From: a virus | IMG/VR virus record: IMGVR_UViG_3300044698_000419 | Location: 1 to 64,000 of that record | Length of the DNA: 64,000 nucleotides | Reading direction: 5' to 3' (one strand) | In this document: positions 25,813 to 57,726 of the stretch, piece by piece | Layout: the number at the start of each line of letters is the position of its first letter | Numbering within the stretch: position 1 is the stretch's first letter | Program-made: the position numbers and the translations under genes | The notes under the pieces: generated by a model | The model's input: only the letters and a program-made list of their open reading frames with translations | What the model was told of the DNA's origin: nothing | The model's database searches: none

Positions 25813-25885
25813 AGGGACGTAGCTCAATTGGTAGAGCGCTGGTCTCCAAAACCAGTACATGGGGGTTCAAGTCCCTCCGGCCCTG
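25813..25885 (+). tRNA. trnW: tRNA-Trp(CCA)
   Basis: Cloverleaf; anticodon arm CTGGT-CTCCAAA-ACCAG; GTTCAAGTC. Confidence 0.93.
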
Positions 25886-25931
25886 CTGGCTTCCGGGATT
25901 TCATCCCCCCCGATATCCCGGAAGCCGTTAA

Positions 25932-26006
25932 CGGAATGTGGCGCAGTTTGTGTAGCGCGCTCGCTTCGGGAGCGAGAGGTCGCGAGTTCAAATCTCACCA
26001 TTCCGA
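25932..26006 (+). tRNA. trnP: tRNA-Pro(CGG)
   Basis: CTCGC-TTCGGGA-GCGAG; acceptor CGGAATG/CATTCCG. Confidence 0.92.
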
Positions 26007-26175
26007 CTGGATCCCAGGAGTCGTACTTCTTTCCCGAAGGCGTCGTCCACAGCTCCTGGGATCCGAAGTTCCCGCGCCGCTGACGGTAGTCGGAAACGCA
26101 GGTGTGGCAACCTGCACAGAGAGCATCGCCCGCCGGGCAGGCGGGTGGTCGGTAGCAGAAAGGCGATGCTCTCGC

Positions 26176-26248
26176 GCCCTTGTAGCTCAGTTGGTAGAGC
26201 GCTTCTTTCGTAATGAAGATGTCGCAGGTTCGACTCCTGTCGAGGGCT
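26176..26248 (+). tRNA. trnT: tRNA-Thr(CGT)
   Basis: CTTCT-TTCGTAA-TGAAG; GTTCGACTC. Confidence 0.92.
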
Positions 26249-26394
26249 CGACGGTGCACGGTTCGGTCTCAGAAACCGACGCGTGTATGCCGATGGGAAT
26301 CCTGGTTGGACAGACCCGGGTTTTCGGTTGGCAGACCCCTGGTGAAACGCTGTCCCGGGAAGCCAGGGGTTCCGGTAAAATAGGGACGGAGAGG

Positions 26395-26508
26395 ATGAGA
26401 AAAGTGTTGATGGACATCCTGGATGCGTGGTTGCATCACTGGGGATGGCTGTGGATGGTCGTCGGACTCTGTGGGTTCGTCGTCGTGGCAGCCGTTTCCA
26501 ACAACTGA
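26395..26508 (+). CDS. 37-aa single-TM peptide inside tRNA cluster
   Basis: MRKVLMDILDAWLHHWGWLWMVVGLCGFVVVAAVSNN with GGAGAGG RBS. Confidence 0.4.
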   Translation: MRKVLMDILDAWLHHWGWLWMVVGLCGFVVVAAVSNN

Positions 26509-26514
26509 ATACGG

Positions 26515-26587
26515 GCGCCCTTAGCTCAGTTGGCAGAGCAGTGGATTCTTAATCCACGTGTCACTGGTTCAAGTCCAGTAGGGCGTA
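26515..26587 (+). tRNA. trnK: tRNA-Lys(CTT)
   Basis: GTGGA-TTCTTAA-TCCAC. Confidence 0.93.
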
Positions 26588-26669
26588 CTGTCGCATTCGG
26601 ATGGCTTTCCATGGACGGTATGATCCGATGCGATCGGTCTGAGATTCTGGATCGGGGTCTCAGGCTGAA

Positions 26670-26742
26670 TGGGGTGTAGCTCAGTGGAAGGAGCGCCCGA
26701 CTACGGATCCGGAGGACGGGAGTTCGAATCTCCCTACCCCAA
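26670..26742 (+). tRNA. trnR: tRNA-Arg(ACG)
   Basis: Loop CTACGGA; one anticodon-stem mismatch; GTTCGAATC. Confidence 0.88.
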
Positions 26743-26765
26743 CGCAATAAACGAACGATAAACGA

Positions 26766-26841
26766 GCGCCTGTGGAGGAGTCTGGCCGTCCTCACCGCCC
26801 TGTCAAGGCGGATATCGCGGGTTCAAATCCCGTCAGGTGCG
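26766..26841 (+). tRNA. trnD: tRNA-Asp(GTC)
   Basis: CCGCC-CTGTCAA-GGCGG. Confidence 0.93.
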
Positions 26842-26987
26842 CTGGCTTTGGAGAACGTCCGACGGAGTCCGTCATCCCCGAGATGGCTATCCGATGGGCG
26901 GTGAGTGAGCCAGGTGAGTCCATGCCAACCTCGATCCAGGAGGCACTTGGATGGCGGCCCCTGCCTAACCGAAATCAAGGGGTGCAA

Positions 26988-27061
26988 GGATCTGTAGCTC
27001 AGGTGCGAAGAGCGCTCGTCTGAAAAACGAGAGGTCGCTGGTTCAACTCCAGCCGGATCCA
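26988..27061 (+). tRNA. trnF: tRNA-Phe(GAA)
   Basis: CTCGT-CTGAAAA-ACGAG. Confidence 0.92.
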
Positions 27062-27161
27062 CAGGTCGGACGGTAAGTCGTTGACGTCGATCCACTGTGG
27101 CAGGTGGGTCATTCGCGGCGAAAGCGGCCCGTGCGCGGAGTGTTTGCCGTCCGACTGCCAT

Positions 27162-27233
27162 TCCCCTGTAGTTTAACTGGCAGAACACCGGCCTCTGGAG
27201 TCGGGAATCTTGGTTCAAATCCAGGCGGGGGAG
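27162..27233 (+). tRNA. trnQ: tRNA-Gln(CTG)
   Basis: CCGGC-CTCTGGA-GTCGG. Confidence 0.92.
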
Positions 27234-27261
27234 CCGGTCGAAAAGGAGAGGAAGGGAACAA

Positions 27262-27468
27262 GTGAAGTTCACTCTGGAGCTGGACCTGTCGAGCGAAGAG
27301 TTCGCCAACCGCAGTAACAGCGACATGGTCCAGGGTGGAAGCATCGGCTTCTACCTGACCGAGGCCGCGAAGCGCATCGACGGCCACGCGATGGCGGCCG
27401 GAGAGAACGGTAAGATCCTTTCGGATGACGATGACACTGTCATCGGATCATGGAGGATCGAGCCTTGA
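27262..27468 (+). CDS. Hypothetical protein
   Basis: Purine-rich RBS; codon bias. Confidence 0.65.
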   Translation: MKFTLELDLSSEEFANRSNSDMVQGGSIGFYLTEAAKRIDGHAMAAGENGKILSDDDDTVIGSWRIEP

Positions 27469-27481
27469 TCGACGAGTTCAA

Positions 27482-27554
27482 TCTCCTGTAGCTCAATCGG
27501 CAGAGCGCCGGATTGTTAATCCGGATGTTACTGGTTCAAGTCCAGTCAGGAGAG
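27482..27554 (+). tRNA. trnN: tRNA-Asn(GTT)
   Basis: CCGGA-TTGTTAA-TCCGG. Confidence 0.93.
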
Positions 27555-27644
27555 CGTGTGCCGACGACACTATGCAATCCTTTGGTCTGAAAAACCGGGG
27601 AGAGCCGCAGTCGGTGGTAAAGGGCCATGGTGCGCACCGTGGCC

Positions 27645-27742
27645 GCTCGGGAAACGGAACTCCGAGTCAGAGCCTGGAAAACGGGGCACTCGGAATGGCC
27701 TTGAGGGGACGCCTTCAGCAGGTTCGAAGCCTGCCCCGAGCA
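27645..27742 (+). ncRNA. tRNA-like element (acceptor + T arm, non-canonical middle)
   Basis: GCTCGGG/CCCGAGC-A acceptor; GCAGG-TTCGAAG-CCTGC T arm; no normal D/anticodon arm. Confidence 0.55.
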
Positions 27743-27839
27743 CTCAGATGTGACCGCATCGAATCTGGAGGGATCGAGATGTTCTCCACCGGCTTCACCT
27801 AGGTCCGCGAAATTCGCGGCCCTAGGAGGATGAATTCCG

Positions 27840-28235
27840 ATGGGCAAGACGGCACATCACCTGAAGGGCAAGTTCGACACGCGCGAATGGCCCGACGGGT
27901 ACATGATGTACTGGCGGGGACGGCCCGTTGTCCCCGTACGTGAGCACACCGTCCACGACCTGCGCTACAGCGCTGCGGAACTCCGCGACGCGGAAGAACA
28001 GGGACGTCGGGCCCGGCCCAGGAAGGTGCGGCGCACCGCGCGCTGGTGGACCTACACCGGGGCCTGGACGCCGAGTTCCAGCCGGACCTACTGGGCAGGC
28101 AAGAACGAACGCGCCAACCGGCGTTACGTGAAGAGCCAGCTCGACGGAGGACGCCGGACCAAGGGCGAACTCGAACGAAGGCTGTACGAGAAGGCCGAGA
28201 GGAAGCCTCGCCGGATGCTTTACGACATCTGGTGA
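27840..28235 (+). CDS. Basic hypothetical protein
   Basis: RBS AGGAGG. Confidence 0.6.
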   Translation: MGKTAHHLKGKFDTREWPDGYMMYWRGRPVVPVREHTVHDLRYSAAELRDAEEQGRRARPRKVRRTARWWTYTGAWTPSSSRTYWAGKNERANRRYVKSQLDGGRRTKGELERRLYEKAERKPRRMLYDIW

Positions 28236-28244
28236 GGGAGGAAA

Positions 28245-28318
28245 GCTCCTGTAGCTCAGGGGATAGAGCACTGGTTTCCTAAACCGGGTTGTCGCAGGTT
28301 CGATTCCTGTCAGGAGCA
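28245..28318 (+). tRNA. trnR: tRNA-Arg(CCT)
   Basis: CTGGT-TTCCTAA-ACCGG. Confidence 0.92.
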
Positions 28319-43682: not shown

Positions 43683-43970
43683 CTATGCGGCAATGAGTTC
43701 CCCGGAAAACTCCGGCACGAAAAGCTGCTGGCGAAGGAAGAAGACTTCCTTGAACTCACCTTCGGGGTTGGCCGGAATCTTCGTGTCCCCCGCCGGGTAC
43801 ATGAACCCCTCGGCTCCGTCCCACGCGTCCTCCAGCGAGCCGAAGAGGACGCCGCCGTGGTTCCGGATGGCTCTGGCCGTCAGCGGGCCCACGGCCAGGG
43901 GCTCCAGTCCACGGTGGAACTGGGGAAACAGGTTGATGGTCCACAGATTGTGCCTGACGAGGGTGTACAC
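43683..43970 (-). CDS. Hypothetical protein
   Basis: GTG behind AAGGAG. Confidence 0.55.
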   Translation of the reverse strand: MYTLVRHNLWTINLFPQFHRGLEPLAVGPLTARAIRNHGGVLFGSLEDAWDGAEGFMYPAGDTKIPANPEGEFKEVFFLRQQLFVPEFSGELIAA

Positions 43971-49042: not shown

Positions 49043-49112
49043 CTGACGGCCATCGTCAGGCAGCACCTCATGCTGCGACCCCACTGGCTGTGGGGTTTCG
49101 GCCTCGGGTCAG
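49043..49112 (-). ncRNA. Hammerhead ribozyme (type II), HHR1
   Basis: CUGAC-CCGA-GGCC GAAA CCCCAC-AGCCA-GUGGGG UC GCAGCA-UGAGG-UGCUGC CUGACGA U GGCC-GUCAG; predicted cut 49077/49076. Confidence 0.9.
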
Positions 49113-49113
49113 G

Positions 49114-49329
49114 TCAGCCGCCGAGCTTCTTCAGGCCCTCCGCGATGGCGGCCAGGTAGTTCACCTGGGCGATCTGCGCCAGGGTGCCGAGGTCCAGTTC
49201 GGAGACCTCGTAGCCCTCCTCCTGGGCAGCCTTGAACTGCTCCCCGATGACCCCGTTCAGGGCGTCGGCGGTCTGCCGGGCGATCTCCAGGTAGTTCGTC
49301 GGGTCCGTGATGACGGGAATACCGGCCAT
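49114..49329 (-). CDS. 71-aa helical hypothetical protein flanked by two hammerheads
   Basis: RBS GGAAAGAGG; strong codon bias. Confidence 0.75.
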   Translation of the reverse strand: MAGIPVITDPTNYLEIARQTADALNGVIGEQFKAAQEEGYEVSELDLGTLAQIAQVNYLAAIAEGLKKLGG

Positions 49330-49356
49330 GGCTTTTCCTCTTTCCGATTCTTCTCA

Positions 49357-49426
49357 CTGACGGCCATCGTCAGGTGCGGCACCACCGCACGACGTCGCTG
49401 GCTGCGACGTTTCGGCCTCGGGTCAG
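49357..49426 (-). ncRNA. Hammerhead ribozyme (type II), HHR2
   Basis: CUGAC-CCGA-GGCC GAAA CGUCGC-AGCCA-GCGACG UC GUGCGG-UGGUG-CCGCAC CUGACGA U GGCC-GUCAG; predicted cut 49391/49390. Confidence 0.9.
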
Positions 49427-49713
49427 TTCTTCTCGTCGGCGGGCCCGTCCTCGGCGTAGTCCGGGTCCATCCAGTTCGCCGCCTGGATGGCGCCACAGGC
49501 ACCGCACTCACCGCCGTCGGCGGAGTGCTCGTGGTACTTCCCGAACTCGCGCCGGATGCGCTCCGCCCACAGGCGACGCACGGCCAGCTCGTCCTCGTGG
49601 TGGCGCAGGAGCTTGTCCAGGATCGGACCACCACCCTCGGCCTCGGTGAGACCTTGCACCACCAGCTCGGCGAGTCGCGCCGTCTCCCCCTTCTTCGGCT
49701 TCTCTCTGATCAC
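49423..49713 (-). CDS. Hypothetical protein
   Basis: GTGA coupling; stop codon lies inside HHR2 stem II. Confidence 0.6.
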   Translation of the reverse strand: MIREKPKKGETARLAELVVQGLTEAEGGGPILDKLLRHHEDELAVRRLWAERIRREFGKYHEHSADGGECGACGAIQAANWMDPDYAEDGPADEKN

Positions 49714-49997
49714 GATCCCTCTCCTTCCTCCGGCGGCAGGCTCGGGAGCCTCGGGGACAGGCGCGTGCCCAGTCCCCATCCCTGAATCCTGCGGTTCTGC
49801 TGCATGTCCTCGGCGATCATGCTGACAAGCTCACTCCGGAAGTACTCGCTCCAGAAGCGGGTGAAGTCCTCCGGGTCCTGATCGAAGTTCTCGATCATCT
49901 TCTCGGTGCTGGCGTACGCCAGCGGGATACCGAACAGCTCCAGGATGATGACCTCGTGTCCGTTCTCCTGCACCTTGCCGATGCGGATCACGTCCAT
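49710..49997 (-). CDS. Hypothetical protein (paralog pair)
   Basis: GHEVIILELFGIPLAYA. Confidence 0.65.
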   Translation of the reverse strand: MDVIRIGKVQENGHEVIILELFGIPLAYASTEKMIENFDQDPEDFTRFWSEYFRSELVSMIAEDMQQNRRIQGWGLGTRLSPRLPSLPPEEGEGS

Positions 49998-56927: not shown

Positions 56928-56941
56928 CCGTGCCGTTGGCG

Positions 56942-57169
56942 TCAGACGGCGACCATACGCACGCAGGCGAGCGCCAGGAGGATCGCGTTCTCCTCACCGG
57001 CACGCAGGGCGCGCTCGACCTCGACGTAGAACTCCCGGTCGGCAGTGTCGGCGTCGGCCTCGATCTTGTCGGAGAGCATCCCCGACACCCACTCCAGGGT
57101 GTCGGTCGGCAGGCCGGGGAAACCCCGGGCGATCTGCGAACGGATCTCTTCGCGGCTGGGCAGCTTCAC
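56942..57169 (-). CDS. Hypothetical protein downstream of hammerhead 3
   Basis: GTG behind AAGGAGAAG. Confidence 0.6.
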   Translation of the reverse strand: MKLPSREEIRSQIARGFPGLPTDTLEWVSGMLSDKIEADADTADREFYVEVERALRAGEENAILLALACVRMVAV

Positions 57170-57192
57170 GTTCTTCTCCTTCTCGTTCTTCA

Positions 57193-57265
57193 CTGACGGC
57201 CATCGTCAGGCGGGGCTTCCGTTCGCCCCGCGACCCCCTCTCAGGGGTTTCGGCCTCGGAGTCAG
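57193..57265 (-). ncRNA. Hammerhead ribozyme (type II), HHR3
   Basis: CUGAC-UCCGA-GGCC GAAA CCCCU-GAGA-GGGGG UC GCGGGGC-GAACGGAA-GCCCCGC CUGACGA U GGCC-GUCAG; predicted cut 57232/57231. Confidence 0.9.
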
Positions 57266-57726
57266 CGCCAGTTCTTGCGGGCCTCGTTGACGACCTCCTC
57301 GGCGTCGGCCAGCGCGGCGGCCAGCCGGTACACCGAGCCCATCCCGGGGGTGCTGAGCGAGCTGATCCCCAGCAGGCCGCGCACCCGGGAGTAGGCGGCC
57401 GTCACCGAGAAGCATCCCGGACTCCGGGTGCACGGCCGGTGCGTGCCCCGGTCGAGCTGGCCCAGCTCCCGGCGCAGCTCCTCCCCGTACTTCAGCTTCC
57501 GGCGGGCCTTGCCCTCCGGCGTGGCGTACGCCTGAAGCACTTCGACGTGCGGGTGACCGGGGTCGACGACCCACCCCTCCCGCTCGACGTAGTCACGCAT
57601 GGAGTCGACGTAGGAGGTGGCGATCTTCCGCATCACCGGATATGCGTCGTTCCACAGTCCGGCGATCTCGGCGGCGGCCTCCCCGGAGAGGGGGCTGTGA
57701 TCCTGGACGACGGGCGCGGTGACCAC
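57262..57726 (-). CDS. Hypothetical protein
   Basis: Stop codon inside HHR3 stem II. Confidence 0.6.
   Translation of the reverse strand: MVTAPVVQDHSPLSGEAAAEIAGLWNDAYPVMRKIATSYVDSMRDYVEREGWVVDPGHPHVEVLQAYATPEGKARRKLKYGEELRRELGQLDRGTHRPCTRSPGCFSVTAAYSRVRGLLGISSLSTPGMGSVYRLAAALADAEEVVNEARKNWR

Follow-up and report, generated by a model that had tools for sequence, protein, structure and literature searches.

The window analysed here is a stretch of 64,000 nucleotides of viral DNA, part of a 102-kb viral record whose relatives are Streptomyces phages of the Satis/Kradal/Frankenweenie group. At 25813-28318 its plus strand carries a tRNA array, with at least ten genes packed into 2.5 kb (Rfam tRNA, 54.8-72.3 bits), as is typical of large Streptomyces phages. 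The minus strand carries three type II hammerheads, HHR1 (49043-49112), HHR2 (49357-49426) and HHR3 (57193-57265), sitting between small genes, HHR2 in an intergenic gap. The order of elements is an upstream CUGAC, a bulge of 4-5 nt, GGCC, GAAA, the stem III hairpin and GUC followed by the cut, and then the stem I hairpin, CUGACGA, one extra U, GGCC and the tail GUCAG. The features are as follows.

49357-49426, minus strand: HHR2, complete type II hammerhead from upstream CUGAC to tail GUCAG
49422-49426, minus strand: HHR2 upstream strand CUGAC, which pairs with the tail GUCAG (49361-49357) and lengthens stem II
49417-49414 with 49365-49362, minus strand: HHR2 stem II, GGCC with GGCC
49413-49410, minus strand: HHR2 GAAA
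49410-49392, minus strand: HHR2 stem III hairpin
49391, minus strand: HHR2 C17, cut predicted between 49391 and 49390
49390-49374, minus strand: HHR2 stem I hairpin
49373-49367, minus strand: HHR2 core CUGACGA, followed by the extra U at 49366
49357-49373, minus strand: HHR2 competing hairpin, CUGACG (49373-49368), loop AUGGC (49367-49363), CGUCAG (49362-49357)
49043-49112, minus strand: HHR1, complete type II hammerhead, CUGAC at 49112-49108 and GGCC at 49103-49100
49059-49053, minus strand: HHR1 core; competing hairpin at 49059-49043, cut predicted between 49077 and 49076
57193-57265, minus strand: HHR3, complete type II hammerhead, CUGAC at 57265-57261, bulge UCCGA at 57260-57256 and GGCC at 57255-57252
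57209-57203, minus strand: HHR3 core; competing hairpin at 57209-57193, cut predicted between 57232 and 57231
49114-49329, minus strand: 71-aa ORF starting at ATG 49329, lying between HHR2 and HHR1 and forming the cistron downstream of HHR2

The 17-mer CUGACGAUGGCCGUCAG is common to all three hammerheads, and the core bases C3-G8 can pair with the CGUCAG inside it. Exactly three matches to CTGACGATGGCCGTCAG were found, all on the minus strand (49043-49059, 49357-49373 and 57193-57209); the chance expectation was ∼0.42 matches with three mismatches allowed, and none of 100 shuffles reached three. When the three sites are aligned, stems I and III vary between copies yet remain paired, and the parts of stem II and the tail are identical.

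The ORF at 49423-49779 (minus strand) ends in UGA 49425-49423, within the CUGAC of HHR2 (49426-49422), and the ORF at 57262-57726 (minus strand) ends in UGA 57264-57262, within that of HHR3 (57265-57261). The stop of the 71-aa ORF (UGA 49116-49114) is placed one base before the CUGAC of HHR1. These ORF ends bear out the first-pass annotation, which had located a UGA stop inside CUGAC in HHR2 and HHR3 and 1 nt before it in HHR1. The stop-bearing ORFs have GC3 values of 0.81-0.93, compared with 0.41 for a competing 82-codon ORF at 49109-49357; thus, the former were taken as real frames and the latter as spurious. At both orthologous ribozymes of Satis, the UGA of CUGAC is the annotated CDS end, and in Frankenweenie the stop is one base before CUGAC. 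On the other side, ATG 49329 lies 27 nt 3′ of the HHR2 competing hairpin, and the downstream starts follow the hairpin by 20-27 nt; in relatives that have no such hairpin, the ribosome-binding site is found directly 3′ of stem II. Pfam and PHROGs gave no family match for the five flanking ORFs. Cutting at both HHR2 and HHR1 (49043-49426, minus strand) would excise a 314-nt piece holding only the 71-aa ORF. Because the stem II strands of the copies are identical, the 5′ half from HHR2 and the 3′ half from HHR1 on this piece could rebuild a chimeric hammerhead that brings its two ends together, and its circularisation is conceivable, which the hairpin would oppose; Perreault et al. (PMC3088659) sought such products elsewhere and saw none.

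All three copies have the conserved core (CUGACGA, GAAA, the A-U pair closing stem III and GUC before the cut) and the type II topology, with stem II open-ended and stems I and III closed by loops. At gathering thresholds, the Rfam scan of the window returned tRNAs only and no hammerhead. At relaxed thresholds, the type II hammerhead model RF02276 (clan CL00010) matched 49355-49417 with 32.9 bits (HHR2) and 57191-57255 with 24.1 bits (HHR3), both below the gathering score of 37 bits, and HHR1 had no listed match even then. This shortfall is due to the extra U, the short stems and a tail unlike the pseudoknot tail of the model, and we take the sub-threshold scores as a limit of the model and not as a ground for excluding the copies. 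Minimum free energy folding of the minimal RNA gave the hammerhead for HHR1 and HHR2, and for HHR3 a fold 0.3 kcal/mol below the hammerhead.

A covariance model was then built from HHR1 and HHR2 only, HHR3 being left out because MAFFT misaligned it. It found 135 hammerheads in 100 of the loci from the pattern scan described below, often several per contig. Among these 135 relatives the hammerhead fold covaries strongly, with 96.6% of cells paired and none of 500 shuffles reaching the observed score; stem III was 97.8% and stem I 99.5% paired, and 12 of 13 pairs showed changes on both sides. In the window copies, A9 is followed by one unpaired U before stem II begins with its first G-C pair, where the criterion of Perreault et al. 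2011 (PMC3088659) is a standard pair N10.1-N11.1 adjoining the core. An extra base after A9, mostly U but sometimes A or G and sometimes absent, recurs in most of 130 distinct relatives, which makes it a conserved trait of a subfamily and not a sign of decay. On this conservation of sequence and fold, the three copies are self-cleaving type II hammerheads, the cleavage itself being predicted.

In each of the three copies, CUGACG (C3-G8 of the core) is complementary to CGUCAG across the loop AUGGC. Of the stem II strand GGCC, the last C is paired in the hairpin and the other three bases fall in its loop; thus, hairpin and stem II are mutually exclusive. A pairing of the core with the downstream CGUCAG that excludes stem II in all three copies had been claimed beforehand, and both the complementarity and the exclusivity were confirmed. 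The stem II region is invariant in the window copies and their close relatives, and no covariation can come from these alone. For this reason, we scanned viral contigs blind to the tail, with a pattern in which only GGCCGAAAC, GTC and CTGANGANGGCC were fixed and N7 and both flanks were free. In this sample, which is seeded by the GGCC stem II pattern, NUCAG stands directly 3′ of stem II in 44 of 108 distinct ribozyme bodies, and its N is complementary to N7, the one free base of the core, in 43 of the 44 (C-G 32, U-A 10, G-C 1). The model-based set of 135 gave C7/G 50, U7/A 10 and G7/C 1 with zero mismatches among NUCAG tails, and its six hairpin pairs were 87.6% paired compared with 5.6-36.1% in registers slid by 1-3 columns (no shuffle of 500 reached the score), values that are biased towards the tail because the model contains it, so that the tail-blind count is the fairer one.

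These counts overstate the number of independent events, since related sequences share ancestry. The loci L094 (C7, GUCAG) and L087 (U7, AUCAG) are 97% identical in their variable regions, with one loop I base different, and carry exactly the double change of N7 and its partner N′; both have no upstream CUGAN strand. U7 sequences do not form one clade, most of them being no more similar to the closest U7 ribozyme than to the closest C7 one. C stands at N7 in 50 of 65 ribozymes of the hairpin class and in 21 of 65 others, an enrichment that fits selection for a stronger hairpin. A scan of genome contigs returned mostly chance matches: 9 of 120 fold as hammerheads, the GUCAG tail is found in four of the five with C7, and the experimentally tested Agrobacterium and Azorhizobium ribozymes were not identified among them. 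The hairpin is optional in the family, being present in about 41-47%. From these comparisons we consider it very probable that the tail-core pairing is under selection; judged by its conservation, the hairpin really exists as an off or locked state, in competition with the catalytic fold.

Two related loci depart from this pattern. At L111:4787-4869 (minus strand), the core reads CCGAUGA (U4 to C) and the tail GUCGG, an A-to-G change that restores pairing with the core; a matching upstream CCGAC lies 10 nt off, inside the coding region, and was not counted as an upstream strand. This locus could represent a natural variant of the core or a copy in decay. At L105:8766-8842 (minus strand), a decayed orthologue of HHR3 in a related viral contig keeps CUGAC, the bulge, GGCC, GAAA and stem III intact, and has lost the CUGANGA core; its tail reads GUCUG.

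A third strand is involved in part of the hairpin class. Depending on the criterion, 25-32 of ∼60 hairpin-bearing ribozymes have an upstream CUGAN a few bases 5′ of stem II that can pair with the same tail, and 22 to 29, about half of the class, do not. Extensions of stem II of at least 5 bp occur only as CUGAN with N′UCAG (32/61 in the hairpin class); in the hairpin-less class, helices of at least 5 bp between upstream flank and tail occur in 6 of 67, compared with a shuffled mean of 9.9. A generic extension of stem II was rejected on these numbers. Because stem II is extended only by a copy of the core, the upstream CUGAC, as read from these alignments, behaves like an anti-sequestor and not like a generic stabiliser. 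The three-way match is kept in L025 and L050, where the upstream strand is CUGAU, the core CUGAU and the tail AUCAG. The CUGAC subgroup spans the window phage, its Streptomyces relatives and the Burkholderia phages BcepGomr and Bm1. In these two cultured phages, hammerheads with CUGAC...GUCAG are found at 43868-43948 of BcepGomr (EF523948 / NC_009447) and 56937-57017 of Bm1 (PP183292); thus, the design spans distant hosts and model systems exist. Outside the window, a fourth hammerhead lies on the minus strand at G000:C1:67800-68080 (locus L138). Its stem II is GGAU/UUCC, where a U faces a U beside the core, its cleavage triplet is GUA and its stem III is longer; its upstream CUGAC overlaps a UGA, and its tail GUCGG can pair with both CUGAC strands through a U-G wobble.

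Stop codons were also compared across the family. In 54 of 60 hairpin-bearing and 50 of 59 hairpin-less ribozymes, a stop is found no more than 13 nt from stem II, often overlapping the first G of GGCC as UAG. Stop adjacency as a hallmark of the hairpin class was therefore rejected, and the overlap reflects tight gene packing in the whole family.

The published tertiary feature of type II hammerheads is a pseudoknot between loop I and nucleotides just 3′ of stem II (PMC3088659). Here, at most three loop I-tail pairs are possible in HHR1 (UGA with UCA) and fewer in HHR2 and HHR3. In the family, loop I varies (roughly U-R-A-N-G) and the tail stays UCAG, the same loop types occurring with and without the tail. 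A loop I-tail pseudoknot was rejected, as the variation in loop I is unmatched by the tail. In HHR3 (57210-57260, minus strand), loop I CGGA is complementary to UCCG in the enlarged stem II bulge, and the HHR3 orthologues of Frankenweenie and L075 keep this complementarity as UGGA with UCCG, wobble allowed; such a pairing may be a tertiary contact replacing the usual pseudoknot. Among ∼130 related hammerheads (loci L020-L137), loop I U-R-A-N-G and an A before GGCC recur with or without the tail hairpin. Together with the extra base, this shared pattern may define an undescribed tertiary contact of the subfamily.

Energies of the two folds were computed with nearest-neighbour parameters for secondary structure only, so that tertiary stabilisation of the hammerhead core is ignored. 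In the minimal RNAs of the window, the active fold is the more stable one by 2.4-2.8 kcal/mol; once natural flanks are included, the folds are about equal or the hairpin wins, and overall the predicted active and hairpin folds differ by no more than about 3 kcal/mol. Family-wide, the median of active minus hairpin energy is +1.0 kcal/mol with an upstream strand and +3.0 kcal/mol without. Barriers along the direct path are ∼12 kcal/mol from active to hairpin and 9.4 kcal/mol from hairpin to active, from which we infer an exchange over seconds to minutes. On these predictions the element is a naturally bistable hammerhead. The 3′ cleavage products are predicted to fold into stem I with the hairpin immediately after it (P 0.79-0.99), which agrees with the earlier proposal that the hairpin and stem I would stand at the new 5′ end after cleavage.

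We tentatively prefer the reading that the hairpin is a lock after cleavage. Each element would be a self-cleaving type II hammerhead built as a three-strand exchange. In the cutting form, the tail (C)GUCAG would pair with the upstream CUGAC, extending stem II from 4 to 9 bp and leaving the core free; in the locked form, the tail would pair with its own core CUGACG, so that C3-G8 are hidden and stem II is unzipped. Cutting presumably occurs in the open form. The products of a type II hammerhead are held together by stem II alone. The 5′ piece, which carries the upstream strand, would leave or be driven out by the core, whose sequence is identical to that strand; where stem II has 9 bp, this identity would provide a strand-exchange route for expelling it. 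The freed 3′ piece would then snap into stem I plus hairpin, in which the core and the stem II strand are no longer open to religation. Cutting would thereby become irreversible, and the downstream message would receive a 5′-OH end made of two adjacent hairpins. Uncut RNA would form the same lock whenever the upstream strand is unavailable, e.g. under a terminating ribosome. Cutting would then be tunable through the availability of the upstream strand, and we rank this as a secondary consequence of the lock. Against this reading, about half of the hairpin bearers have a 4-bp stem II, whose products should separate unaided, so that a role in product release is unnecessary for that class. Moreover, predictions for a 4-bp stem II already favour the hairpin over the active fold before cutting. 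The 4-bp class would therefore fit an off switch or a kinetic trap at least as well as a lock.

One alternative makes translation the input. A ribosome terminating upstream would mask CUGAC and GGCC, the tail would pair with the core and the ribozyme would be off, so that cutting is found mainly on messages whose upstream gene is untranslated, an attenuator-like logic with self-cleavage as output. We regard this switch as rather unlikely, although a ribosome on a stop inside CUGAC covers this strand and GGCC, and some transient inhibition would then be physically unavoidable. In its favour, each of the three copies, like the orthologues in Satis and Frankenweenie, has the stop in CUGAC or 1 nt before it. 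Every upstream strand repeats the core sequence, which is what one expects of an anti-sequestor, and refolding from hairpin to active fold on a seconds scale, as derived from the barriers, would be similar to ribosome spacing. When a terminating ribosome was modelled as a mask from -15 to +12 around the stop, stem II was blocked and the predicted hairpin P was 0.97 for HHR2 and 0.99 for HHR3; for HHR1 the same mask did not favour the hairpin (P only 0.07), as other pairings intervene. Thus, the claim of the first-pass annotation that a terminating ribosome favours the hairpin holds as a prediction for two copies and fails for the third. Moreover, stops adjoin stem II as often where the hairpin is lacking (50/59) as where it is present (54/60), and the 22 to 29 hairpin-bearing ribozymes with no upstream strand have nothing there to mask. 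Of the coupling that had been claimed, the real and competing hairpin therefore stands; the stop adjacency turned out not to be specific to the hairpin, and about half of the class has no upstream CUGAN. Coupling to translation is physically plausible and possible, the sequences giving it no specific support, and it would be most attractive for the CUGAC subgroup. There is some chance, a small one in our judgement, that these are the first natural translation-gated self-cleaving ribozymes, with each terminating ribosome handing the sequestor to the core and turning cutting off. In that event, the phage would restrict the cutting of its early polycistronic messages to places where the upstream gene is untranslated.

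Other explanations dispense with the ribosome. A fast local trap could put a fixed share of nascent transcripts into an uncuttable state during transcription and so set the cut:uncut ratio of the polycistronic message without any outside signal. The hairpin closes locally around a 5-nt loop, and stem II is a long-range pairing; the two folds are predicted to be similar in energy or the hairpin to be the better one, and with barriers of 9-12 kcal/mol they would interconvert slowly compared with folding. A hairpin found in only about 41-47% of the family is also what a tuning device might look like. However, clustered prophage hammerheads cleaved almost completely during in vitro transcription in Perreault et al. 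2011 (PMC3088659), ribozymes that may or may not carry the tail, and we think such a kinetic partition improbable. It is more doubtful still that the hairpin serves another role, as a protein or RNase site or in initiation of downstream translation, with the hiding of the core as a side effect. Its distance of 20-27 nt from downstream start codons, and the ribosome-binding site that directly follows stem II in hairpin-less relatives, would suit such a role. However, one arm of the hairpin is the catalytic core, which ties any such site to the state of the ribozyme; no conserved loop or flanking motif is seen beyond what the ribozyme needs, there is no known partner protein, and the family searches matched none of the flanking genes. 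Finally, the tail could be nothing but the 3′ side of a longer stem II, matching the core by inherited coincidence, as would agree with the invariance of the stem II region, and hence the missing covariation, in the window and close relatives. We give very little credit to this explanation, as N7 and N′ co-vary in ribozymes without any upstream strand and NUCAG recurs at a fixed position in the tail-blind matches (44/108).

What is new here is that the hairpin is kept far beyond the window phage, by compensatory change at the only free position of the core. A 2019 review (PMC6765202) names glmS as the only regulated bacterial self-cleaver and leaves the role of phage-associated ones unresolved. 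A conserved hairpin that hides the core, in ∼41% of the tail-blind sample, suggests that a large share of phage type II hammerheads does not simply cut constitutively. In one subgroup the hairpin is balanced by an upstream strand that mimics the core and overlaps a stop codon, and the two together amount to a three-strand model concrete enough to test by mutation. For such tests, the Burkholderia phage BcepGomr and, on S. lividans or S. scabiei, the Streptomyces phages Satis, Kradal and Frankenweenie are available in culture. The tail also helps to account for sub-threshold scores in standard models, and suggests a natural design for ribozyme switches. A literature search, in which subscription journals were thinly covered, found neither a core-sequestering hairpin nor translation control described for phage hammerheads.

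Clustered type II hammerheads between prophage or phage genes have been described, with the cutting of polycistronic messages as their proposed role (PMC3088659), and such ribozymes of D. vulgaris cleave in vivo (PMC8782182). The window copies resemble the ribozymes of Perreault et al. 2011 (PMC3088659; RF02276) in their CUGANGA and GAAA cores, GUC triplet, open stem II and capped stems I and III, and also in their arrangement, with several copies within a few kb flanking single small genes on the coding strand. Unlike those, their tail after stem II pairs with the catalytic core and not with loop I, an extra U stands between A9 and G10.1, and their scores are below gathering. The core-sequestering hairpin is not mentioned in the text or text supplements of PMC3088659, and the motif is absent from those supplements.

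Hammerheads masked by alternative folds are known from viroids and satellite RNAs, e.g. satRPV (cited in PMC6765202) and ASBVd (PMC4960562). There, too, the ribozyme is held in a stable alternative structure and is thought to be active only transiently or in particular conformers, the alternative folds being thought to prevent unwanted cutting or to allow other functions. However, those hammerheads are of type I or III, belong to circular replicating RNAs with long-range rod or double-hammerhead structures and involve no translation, whereas the element in the window is a local hairpin of 6 bp.

By analogy, the element also resembles the leader-peptide attenuators of the trp type, with three strands, two exclusive pairings and a ribosome on the first strand that could decide between them. 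This likeness would concern a possible way of working and not membership of the class: the output would be self-cleavage and not termination, and the ribosome would stand at the normal stop of a full-length gene and not in a leader peptide. Self-cleavage of the glmS ribozyme is controlled by a metabolite cofactor and is not constitutive, and in engineered hammerhead aptazymes, which are synthetic, a competing strand hides the hammerhead core by strand displacement. Unlike in these systems, no ligand is evident here, and the competing strand is natural and conserved.
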